Positions 3,001 to 6,000 of a stretch of DNA of 37,884 bases are shown here, piece after piece. How positions within the stretch are numbered: position 1 is the stretch's first letter; the number at the start of each line of letters is the position of its first letter. Origin of the DNA: a virus. The position numbers were made by a program. Location of the stretch: the UHGV virus genome UHGV-2203451; one strand, 5' to 3'.

Positions 3001-6000
3001 CGAATGAATCCATCAAGGAACTGTTCATTATAACTTTTGGCTATCTGATAACATCCAACAGCATCAATGCGTTCGATTGTGAATTGCCAACTATCACCGC
3101 AGTTAAAATTCCATTTCCAGCCGTATTTCTGTGCGAATTCATCATATTCAACATTTGCAGGTTCAGAACAGAAAGATAAAAATCTAAATGTTGGTTTTGG
3201 CCTTAGATGGTTAAGCCCGGCACCTCTTGGGGTATATATGGCATTATCTCCATTCCCACCTTTTGTTTTAACTGTAAGGTGACTTAAACCAAATTCAATA
3301 TCATATTTTGTTGGCGCAGCAAAAACAAAGCCGTCTTTTGGTGATGTGGTATTGTCAAACACAATAACCGTTTCACCCTGCCCATCACCGCATATATTTA
3401 TGGGTGGTATATTAACAGGACCAGTCACATTGTATATTCCTTTTGGCACATATAGTTTTCCGCCCTCTCCGAGAGCATTCGCTGCAGCAATAAATGCTGG
3501 CGTATCATCGATAATATTATCCCCTTTCGCCCCAAAATCTTTAACATTATAAACGTCACGCATCTTATCCTGGAACGTTCTGTATACTGCCCCAGAACCA
3601 TACTGAATAAACCAACCAAAACCACCAACAACTCCGGCAATTGCAGCATCGACATAATTACGCATTGAGCGATTATTTACAGCGTCCTGCTCAAGTGATG
3701 GATCTGCAAGGTTAGAAATTCTGTTTTGCTTTGCATCGTAATATTTTGCAAGCAAAGATGGTTTCATCAATGCACGTCTGAACCACCCAAAACATTGCTG
3801 GATCAGCATCGTCAGGTAGTCAAAGGCATCTTCATGCACTTCGGGAAAAAACTTTCCCTGATTGCGAAGATCTGTCTCCTGTACTACATCAAGCACACGA
3901 TCTATCGTAATTCGCCATCCAGTAGCAAGCGGAGACGGAAGAACCACAGAACCGCCACTATAAGTGCCAGCTCCAGTTACTGTATAACCGGTATCCAGAA
4001 CCAATTCTGTTACGTTCCCGTTCAGGTCAGACACCTGAACAACCAGGTCGGATTTTTTGAAAATGCGGAAAGTATACGGAAACGATGTCGTAACTCCGTT
4101 ACCGGTGTATTCGTTGTGGTCAACTTCGGTTGAGACCGTCATGTTAAATCTCCAGATAGTCGCAGCACCCGTTGCGCCGCATATCTGGTTATTCTATTAC
4201 CTGGAAAACCACATATGGATAGAAAGGCTGTAAATACGAATAGATATTACCTTTCAGGTAATTTGCAAAACGTGCTGGATAGCAAACAAATTATTTGCTA
4301 CTGTATAAATATACAGTTATTGCATGGAGAAGATAAGATGCAGCAGTATCACTATCCACTGGAAGACGGATTTACCGAAAGGATTCACACGCCGGGAGGC
4401 GTCAGGTCACTGGTGGAGGGATCGCACTTGATGAAATTACTCCGGGATCTCGATAAGGATGGATTTAATGTCGATGGCCCACTTGCCGAACTGACTGCAC
4501 TGATTAACTACGTCACCAGCTCACAGATGTCTATGCAGGATCTGCAAACACATCTCGACTATTGTGCCGAACAATTACGAAAACAAACCCGGTAAATTTA
4601 AAGGCCGCAAGAGCGGCCATTAACAGTCGTAAAATTCCGGGTCCCACAAACTTGCATCGCGCGGCATGGATTCTAAATTTTTCAGCCGCAAAATTCTGTC
4701 ACACTCGACAAGAAGTTTTTGTTTTTGTTCGTCAATTTCTACTTTTTTGTGTGCTGGCTCATCCCAGTAATCCAGAAGAAACGCATGTCGCTCAGACGTT
4801 ACAAGATAAATCACATACACATCACTGGTTGGTATTTTTTTATGCTTGTTGGTGGTCTTGTCTTTCTTCCCGGATGCCCAGTTTTTCCAGCATTGTTCCG
4901 TACCGCTCTCACCAAACTTGTCAGTATAGTTTCCGATGTTTACGTGAACGTGGCGTATGTGATATTCCAGCATCTCTTTCGGTGGATCCCGAAACAGAGT
5001 GTCCTTTCCGAAATCCTTATGATGACCGTAGCGCCAGTGATCTATGAACGCGTTTTTGATAGGTATTAGCTCAGGGTCCTTCCCAAAAATTCCAGGGTGA
5101 ACCAACCCCTGGAATTTATTCAGCATCGTCGTAGAGCTCCTGAGCCATATCTTCGGCAGTGCGTGCAAACATCCTGCGCGAGATTGCATGAGATTTCTCG
5201 ACGGACATCTTTGGGACCTCATGCATAACATTTTTGGGAGTTGTGTAATAGCCTATTACAATTTTCACACCTGACTTATGATTAATATCAGCATAATATA
5301 CTTCTTGTTCAGACGTTTCACGACGAACATAATCTGCCAGTTTTCCACATTTAAATTCCCCTCCCTGATGTTTTAAAATCTCCTCAACTGCACTATTTTC
5401 AGTGAAATACCGAATAAGAAATTTCTGTCCAGACTCTTCAGCATGAGGTATAACAGTATTATTGGAAGCCCGAACAATGGCCTTACTCAATATTTCATGG
5501 TCTTTATTTTTTTCTGATTTCCTCAAATGCTGCATTACTGTAGCTCTCTTCGTGTTCACGGGCACCCCCAACTACCTCTAGGGTAAACATTCTATCGAAA
5601 GTATACGCATACTGGCAAAAAAATAGGCAGGTATTTTCTGAAATGGGATCAATCAAACCACATAGGGTTGAAATAACGTGAGTTATGCATTTATTATTAC
5701 CTTTGCGGTAAATTTACATCGCACTCCTCTTGTGCCATAGTAATCGGGCACTGGAAAAATCCAGTGCCGGGATTGGCGTCCCGGATTACTAAAAGGCGCA
5801 TTCACCGCGCAAGCGGTTTTTTTATGCGTATAGCACGGCCACATTCGTATTATGGTGGGCTGTGTGGGGGCACCGAAAGGTGCGCCGGGTCCTTTTAGCC
5901 GGTTACGCCAACCCTGCACAGTTCACCACCAACCGATTGGCGTCGGTAGTGGTGATTAACCAGACTAAAAGGTAACCACTATGACAGCTACAAAAAGCAC

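Follow-up and report, generated by a model that had tools for sequence, protein, structure and literature searches.

An Escherichia coli phage of the phiV10 type carries a probable orthologue of the LexA-controlled Ant-Rep antirepression switch of SPC32H

The antirepression system of Salmonella phage SPC32H has reportedly been worked out both genetically and structurally. Its Ant-Rep pair is represented in the PDB by entries 5D50 and 5D4Z; an Ant tetramer binds two Rep dimers and thereby breaks the Rep tetramer (PMC9638917), and the C-terminal domain of Rep mediates tetramerization as well as Ant binding (PMC9986798). According to a review, self-cleavage of LexA leads to the production of Ant, which inhibits the repressor by protein-protein contact (PMC7380047). 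Related logic is found in other phages. In coliphage 186, a P2-like myovirus, the LexA box starts at the TACTGT −10 of p95, the promoter of tum (−10 at 29044-29049 and LexA site at 29044-29063 in the 186 record), and the small SOS-induced protein Tum inactivates the non-cleavable repressor CI in trans. For Gifsy-1, Gifsy-3 and Fels-2, LexA-controlled antirepressors are on record (Lemire et al. 2011, PMC3121763) that are derepressed by SOS, bind repressors not open to cleavage, and may act across prophages. P22 and P1 each have a second immunity locus, immI, close to the tail genes, for an antirepressor, which is under Mnt/Arc/sar in P22 and arranged as c4 RNA-icd-ant in P1.

Here we analyzed a stretch of 37,884 nucleotides, the UHGV virus genome UHGV-2203451 (hereafter the window), which is a phiV10/epsilon15-like E. 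coli phage of the genus Uetakevirus, the genus of SPC32H. Its segment 4150-4650 is 95-99.8% identical to phiV10-type Escherichia phages of this genus, namely vB_EcoP_ZX5, phiv142-3, phiV10, TL-2011b and the O157 typing phages 9 and 10. Of 5426 complete E. coli genomes, 531 carry the module at 4143-4595, with a 100% identical copy in APEC O18; every E. coli phage record that was found has it too. The tailspike gene tsp (1560-4142) lies on the minus strand and is divergent from a small plus-strand gene, ant, which starts at 4338 and is far from the repressor gene rep at 33455. The same order, with ant divergent from the tailspike or tail-fibre gene and far from rep, is seen in SPC32H, epsilon15, phiV10, Tyrion and BUCT554. 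An earlier note on this DNA had drawn attention to the position of the module, in the tailspike-proximal region of a podovirus-type genome and away from the immunity region. The position itself is as described there, but it cannot be regarded as a new placement, because the relatives SPC32H and epsilon15 share this synteny and the arrangement is thus the published one.

The ant gene (4338-4595, including the stop codon at 4593-4595) encodes a protein of 85 aa. When this protein was searched against the PDB with phmmer, residues 2-84 matched chain E of 5D50, entitled 'Anti-repressor protein', with an E value of 4e-47. In tblastn searches it was 88% identical to the product of the gene annotated as 'ant: anti-repressor protein' in SPC32H (KC911856) and SPC32N, 84% identical to gp19 of epsilon15, 78-86% identical to the Enterobacter phage proteins and 58-63% identical to those of the Klebsiella phages. 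The protein belongs to phrog_450, whose PHROGs entry reads 'unknown function'. Searches of Pfam, NCBIfam and PADLOC assigned it to no family, and Pfam found no Bro-N or AntA domain at its N-terminus. A mechanical ORF list opens the frame at 4215, but we consider the part up to 4338 to be non-coding, because it holds the LexA box described below, because a one-base gap has to be opened in the Klebsiella sequences to align it, and because all homologues start later, each at the methionine of MQQY/MQRQY. With ATG at 4338 and GGAG at 4326-4329, the 85-aa ORF and its Shine-Dalgarno sequence are as the earlier note had proposed. Judged by its sequence, the protein is a member of the SPC32H Ant family, and all of the defining features that a sequence can reveal are present.

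A LexA (SOS) box, TACTGTATAAATATACAGTT, is located at 4299-4318, 8 bp before GGAG, and departs from the 20-nt LexA consensus of E. coli at two positions (18/20). When the whole 37.9-kb window was scanned, this was the sole site with three or fewer mismatches; the runner-up 20-mer matched at 14 of 20 positions and lacked the cores. No site at this threshold appeared in any of 100 dinucleotide-preserving shuffles of the window. The shorter pattern CTGT-N8-ACAG occurs three times (0.45 expected), and the two copies besides the LexA box have G+C-rich spacers. A near-perfect SOS box is thus present upstream of the 85-aa ORF, as had been claimed, and it is unique in the window. When the region between tsp and ant was aligned for eight phages, the window included, with hosts from four genera (alignment A1), the CTGT and ACAG cores, together with the TA that flanks them, proved to be unchanged in the six phages of Escherichia, Salmonella and Enterobacter, while the 8-bp spacer varies among the same six; in both Klebsiella phages the left core is ATGT. 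Such a combination of fixed cores and a variable spacer is the signature of a protein-binding site. The spacer also distinguishes the window (ATAAATAT) from SPC32H (ATGTTTAT). SPC32H and SPC32N show two base differences in the 1-kb region around ant, one of which converts ACAG to AAAG in the LexA box, and the alignment identifies the box of the window as the orthologue of the box bearing this difference. The two genomes are said to differ by two nucleotides in total, and the change in the LexA box of SPC32N reportedly makes Ant constitutive and forces the phage into lytic growth.

A consensus scan of 4100-4700 detected no sigma-70-like promoter. In a second search, a simple PWM scan over all eight orthologous regions, TGGATA-17-TACTGT was the top-scoring candidate at the same aligned position in six of the eight, and the two Klebsiella phages have TGGAAA-17-TATATG there. 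In the window, the putative −35 (TGGATA, 4276-4281, plus strand) lies within the conserved block TGCTGGATAG, and the putative −10 (TACTGT, 4299-4304), at a spacing of 17 bp, consists of the first six bases of the LexA box. Other hexamers within the box that might serve as the −10 (TATAAA at 4304-4309, TATACA at 4310-4315 and TACAGT at 4312-4317), as well as TTGCTA as a −35, were rejected, having no conserved partner hexamer at 16-18 bp. Further downstream, GGAG precedes the start codon by 8 nt; the aligned sequences of all eight orthologues have it in this place, and in the six non-Klebsiella ones it is part of a shared block, TGCATGGAG. With these predicted hexamers, the LexA box would overlap the ant promoter and its start site. 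The box had previously been placed between promoter-like sequence and the Shine-Dalgarno sequence; it is indeed upstream of the latter, but since the predicted −10 is the left part of the box, it seems to overlap the promoter instead of following it. At the other end of the gene, a GC-rich hairpin, GGCCGC-N4-GCGGCC (4603-4618), stands between ant and a convergent minus-strand gene (4620-5231). It was scored as a terminator on the minus strand, and in the epsilon15 record the corresponding place, behind gp19, carries an annotated rho-independent terminator. Because no T-run follows the hairpin on the plus strand, its function as a terminator for ant can only be presumed.

The presumed target of Ant is the immunity repressor encoded by rep (33455-34039, plus strand). 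The 194-aa product matched chain A of 5D50, 'Repressor', over its full length with an E value of 4e-42. Pfam found HTH domains (HTH_3) and did not find Peptidase_S24, so that the description of this ORF as a repressor without a cleavage domain was correct. The protein keeps the architecture of SPC32H Rep, i.e., two HTHs and a C-terminal domain, along its full length, and is 42% identical to it (52% in the NTD, 33% in the second HTH and 43% in the C-terminal domain). By contrast, the identity of Ant between the phages of E. coli and Salmonella reaches 84-88%, and with Rep only 42% identical the contact between Ant and Rep in the window phage is extrapolated across a large divergence. Homologues of Ant were found in 35 phage records and those of Rep in 37, which are essentially the same records. 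Their co-occurrence supports a coupling of the two proteins, as far as can be judged from records that essentially belong to one genus, where it could merely reflect shared ancestry.

A perfect palindrome of the form ATTACC-N5-GGTAAT, ATTACCTTTCAGGTAAT, is located at 4246-4262, 36 bp before the LexA box. Its ATTACC arm is unchanged in all eight orthologues and the other arm shows single changes only. With up to two mismatches allowed, the window contains 14 copies of this motif against 1.2 expected, a 12-fold enrichment, and nearly all of them are intergenic, with a clustering around rep. Three lie between rep and a divergent cro-like ORF (33336-33400, starting at 33336, 33367 and 33384), and a pair separated by 62 bp (34096-34174, starting at 34096 and 34158) is located just downstream of rep. 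SPC32H has operator-like sites before its terminase, head, lysis and int operons and three on each side of rep, with 62-bp pairs; its sites at 34389, 34406 and 34436 mirror the triple cluster of the window. In the epsilon15 record, seven such sites are annotated as 'protein_bind: repressor, lysogeny', one of them upstream of gp19. Given the enrichment, the clustering around rep, the distribution in SPC32H and the epsilon15 annotation, the motif is very probably the operator of Rep (or of Rep/Cro). On the minus strand, the PWM scan found TCCATA/TTCATA-17-TAGAAT in each of the eight orthologues, always in the same place of the alignment, with the top minus-strand score in six and the second score in the window and Tyrion. 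In the window this putative tailspike promoter (4191-4219) consists of a −35, TCCATA, at 4219..4214 and a −10, TAGAAT, at 4196..4191. An invariant ATTACC half-site (4196-4201) abuts this predicted −10, and the probable operator at 4246-4262 lies between the predicted divergent promoters of ant and tsp.

The window also contains a second gene with an Ant-like domain. This gene (5981-6676), for a 231-aa protein, is directly preceded by two RNAs that Rfam detected, isrK (5748-5823) and the antisense RNA C4 (5848-5933). In the protein, a Bro-N domain (Pfam, E value 2e-21) is joined to an Ant-like C-terminal domain. This C-terminal domain is 42% identical to Ant (E value 8e-16), matches phrog_450 at aa 148-229, and shares 20 invariant columns with Ant in their alignment (alignment A2). 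The segment 5748-6676 is an antirepressor module of the P1 immI type with an Ant-like domain. It has no LexA box, is preceded by two operator-like sites (5571 and 5696), and is absent from SPC32H. The Bro-N::Ant-domain protein could share the role of Ant or take it over. Between ant and this module sit two minus-strand genes, 4620-5231 and 5116-5571, for which no family was found in Pfam, NCBIfam or PADLOC; phiV10 and ZX5 lack both genes, and EC.W1-9 has them.

Compared with SPC32H, the window phage, whose host is E. coli, has a Rep homologue likewise devoid of a cleavage domain, an ant gene likewise divergent from the tailspike gene, a LexA box predicted to lie over the ant promoter, and an ATTACC-N5-GGTAAT site upstream; it differs in its diverged Rep and in the addition of the isrK/C4 and Bro-N::Ant-domain module and the two minus-strand genes near ant. 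The earlier note had instead likened the wiring to that of 186 Tum and of Gifsy-type prophages. This comparison is apt for the functional logic, and fails for kinship in sequence with the Tum or Gifsy-1 proteins. The predicted geometry of the ant promoter is the same as that of p95, and the epsilon15 LexA box is identical to the 186 box at 20 of 20 positions. The −10 within the LexA site would, however, be a functional resemblance only: BLASTP gave no sequence similarity between Ant and Tum (E value 0.06, 30% identity over 46 aa with gaps), and tblastn of Ant against the whole 186 genome returned nothing (best E value 1.3). Tum is moreover a protein of 146 aa with nested starts. Neither Ant nor the 231-aa protein had a counterpart in the whole genome of Gifsy-1, the one of the Gifsy/Fels-2 group that was searched (tblastn, best E value 1.8), and the Gifsy phages, whose antirepressors are of the GfoA/GfhA type, are lambdoid siphoviruses. 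Membership of Ant in the Tum family or the Gifsy-1 family was therefore ruled out by the lack of similarity. The module differs from the immI loci of P22 and P1 in having the 85-aa Ant under a LexA box in place of Mnt/Arc or antisense-RNA control; nor is this Ant homologous to the N-terminal regions of P22 or P1 Ant.

We conclude, with a probability of about 90%, that this phiV10-type E. coli phage has the orthologue of the Ant-Rep antirepression switch known from SPC32H. In a lysogen, host LexA would sit on the SOS box at 4299-4318, over the −10 and the start site of ant, and keep the gene silent, while Rep, which has no domain for RecA-stimulated cleavage, would keep the prophage off through the ATTACC-N5-GGTAAT operators. 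DNA damage would lead to cleavage of LexA stimulated by activated RecA (RecA*), derepression of ant and synthesis of the 85-aa protein. Ant, a tetramer in SPC32H, would then bind the C-terminal tetramerization domain of Rep and split the Rep tetramer into dimers, and the release of Rep from DNA would turn on the lytic genes. For LexA binding, SOS dependence, the contact between Ant and Rep and the promoter hexamers, this scheme draws on orthology. The proposal of the earlier note that a small LexA-derepressed antirepressor inactivates a non-cleavable repressor in trans is accordingly one that the sequence data support, through the orthology of Ant (E value 4e-47, 88% identity) and Rep (E value 4e-42) to the SPC32H proteins, the conserved LexA box and the natural mutation of this box in SPC32N.

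Two readings would detach the box or the protein from this switch. The palindrome might be accidental or structural and the ORF some small, unrelated accessory gene, a view that could appeal to the failure of the simple consensus scan to give a promoter and to the absence of a Pfam or NCBIfam family for Ant. As shuffled sequence never yields such a LexA site, as the cores are kept across genera around a variable spacer, and as a solved structure exists of an 88%-identical protein bound to a repressor, we regard this reading as effectively refuted, with hardly any probability left to it. It is also conceivable that the LexA-Ant half works but that the diverged Rep of the same phage is not the main target of Ant, either because the repressors of other resident prophages are hit in trans or because the Bro-N::Ant-domain protein is the effective antirepressor. 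The disparity between the conservation of Ant (88%) and that of Rep (42%) between the E. coli and Salmonella phages fits this view, as does the presence of the paralogous Ant domain, and crosstalk by trans-acting antirepressors is documented for Gifsy and Fels-2 (PMC3121763). We nevertheless consider it improbable: the homologues of Ant and Rep co-occur in essentially every record that has either, Rep keeps its two-HTH and C-terminal-domain architecture over the full length, and an uncleavable Rep without Ant would have no evident route for responding to SOS.

A further alternative leaves Ant and Rep paired and concerns the control of ant. The earlier note had taken the ATTACC-N5-GGTAAT site as a sign that the phage regulator also represses ant; the site is real and conserved, but its role in repressing ant is doubtful, as it stops 14 bp short of the predicted −35. 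Under dual control, the ant promoter would be repressed by both LexA and Rep, the latter at 4246-4262, so that Ant appears only once both have been lifted, or so that Rep damps leaky expression of ant. Consistent with this, the perfect palindrome is conserved in all eight orthologues, belongs to the enriched family clustered around rep, has an equivalent that the epsilon15 depositors annotated as a repressor site, and adjoins a weaker alternative −35, TTGCAA (4263-4268). Measured from the predicted start of ant, however, its centre falls at about −57, a position that would not occlude the conserved −35; for the divergent tailspike promoter, where the invariant half-site also sits, the palindrome is just as well placed, at about −70. 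The motif is also found elsewhere, ahead of structural, lysis and int operons. Furthermore, the SPC32N sequence keeps the site, and yet its single LexA-box change is said to suffice for constitutive Ant; and repression by Rep of its own antirepressor would oppose induction. Dual control is thus possible but in our view doubtful, and it is at least as likely that the operator serves the tailspike promoter, or both promoters.

Within the preferred reading, that of an orthologous Ant-Rep switch, we tentatively suggest, as something rather less than probable, that one Rep-binding fold is used twice and that two inputs converge on one repressor, one through Ant under LexA and the other through the Bro-N fusion behind the isrK and C4 RNAs, under control of the P1 immI type. 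Since identity across the phages of E. coli and Salmonella amounts to 84-88% for Ant but to 42% for Rep, Ant may recognize a conserved surface of Rep, which might allow cross-induction between heteroimmune Uetakevirus prophages of hosts of different genera.

The SOS-Ant module is an already known system, characterized in SPC32H of the same genus; the observation is real, and the discovery value is small, as the mechanism had already been worked out there genetically and structurally. In the literature searched, we found no paper linking phiV10 with an antirepressor or LexA. The practical value lies in annotation: wherever one of the listed E. coli genome or phage records is annotated, it calls the gene of the module a 'hypothetical protein', phrog_450 has no assigned function, and neither Pfam nor NCBIfam has a model for it. 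Transferring the Ant, Rep and LexA-box labels would mark common E. coli prophages, including the phiV10-type phages of O157:H7, as SOS-inducible through antirepression.

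Two RNA genes, isrK (5748-5823, 76.7 bits) and the C4 antisense RNA (5848-5933, 77.7 bits), immediately precede the gene for a 231-aa Bro-N protein, whose C-terminal 80 residues are 42% identical to the 85-aa antirepressor Ant. The segment 5748-6676 is a second antirepressor module of the P1 immI type, bearing an Ant-like domain. Salmonella phage SPC32H, in which an Ant-Rep switch has been characterised, does not have this module. In the related phage vB_EcoP_ZX5, a 37-aa CDS just 5' of the Bro-N gene (3455-3568 of that genome) is annotated as an "ash family protein"; its counterpart in the window, matched by position alone, is the ORF at 5862-5975. 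Because this ORF overlaps the C4 match, the ZX5 CDS is probably an RNA gene mis-annotated as coding.

Between ant and the isrK/C4 module, two overlapping genes on the minus strand (4620-5571) encode proteins of 203 aa (phrog_1651) and 151 aa (phrog_9503), neither of which had a match in Pfam, NCBIfam or PADLOC. Compared with phiV10 and ZX5, the pair is an insertion in the window; EC.W1-9 also carries it. The two genes look like a moron of unassigned function.

The 17-bp operator-like motif ATTACC-N5-GGTAAT occurs at 14 sites in the window where 1.2 are expected, mostly in intergenic regions: 4246, 5571, 5696, 6742, 12002, 24037, 27230, 27248, 30991, 31053, 32999, 33384, 34096 and 34158. The site at 24037 shares its intergenic region with a plus-strand tRNA-Arg gene (anticodon TCT, 24375-24451). 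Two pairs, 30991/31053 and 34096/34158, are spaced by exactly 62 bp, and pairs with the same spacing are present in SPC32H. This pattern suggests that a single repressor tetramer bridges a pair of operators at most of the phage's promoters. Across the triple operator cluster from the immunity repressor gene rep, and divergent from it, is a minus-strand ORF of ~76 aa (33073-33300, beginning MSDNGHFDFKKHWLALTPDER), missing from the overview list of ORFs, for which the minimum was 80 aa; we call it "cro-like" by its position relative to rep alone.

In epsilon15, a LexA box, TACTGTATGTTTATACAGTA (1456-1475 of that genome), lies upstream of gp19. The LexA site of p95, the tum promoter of coliphage 186 (29044-29063 of the 186 sequence), is identical to it at 20 of 20 positions, spacer included, and the proteins encoded downstream of the two boxes are unrelated.

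Ant of this E. coli phage (4338-4595) shares 88% identity with its counterpart in Salmonella phage SPC32H, whereas for Rep (33455-34039), its expected partner, the figure is only 42%; for the related phage Tyrion the values are 86% for Ant and 78% for Rep. The uneven conservation of Ant and Rep would reflect either shuffling of the modules or binding of Ant to a conserved surface of Rep.
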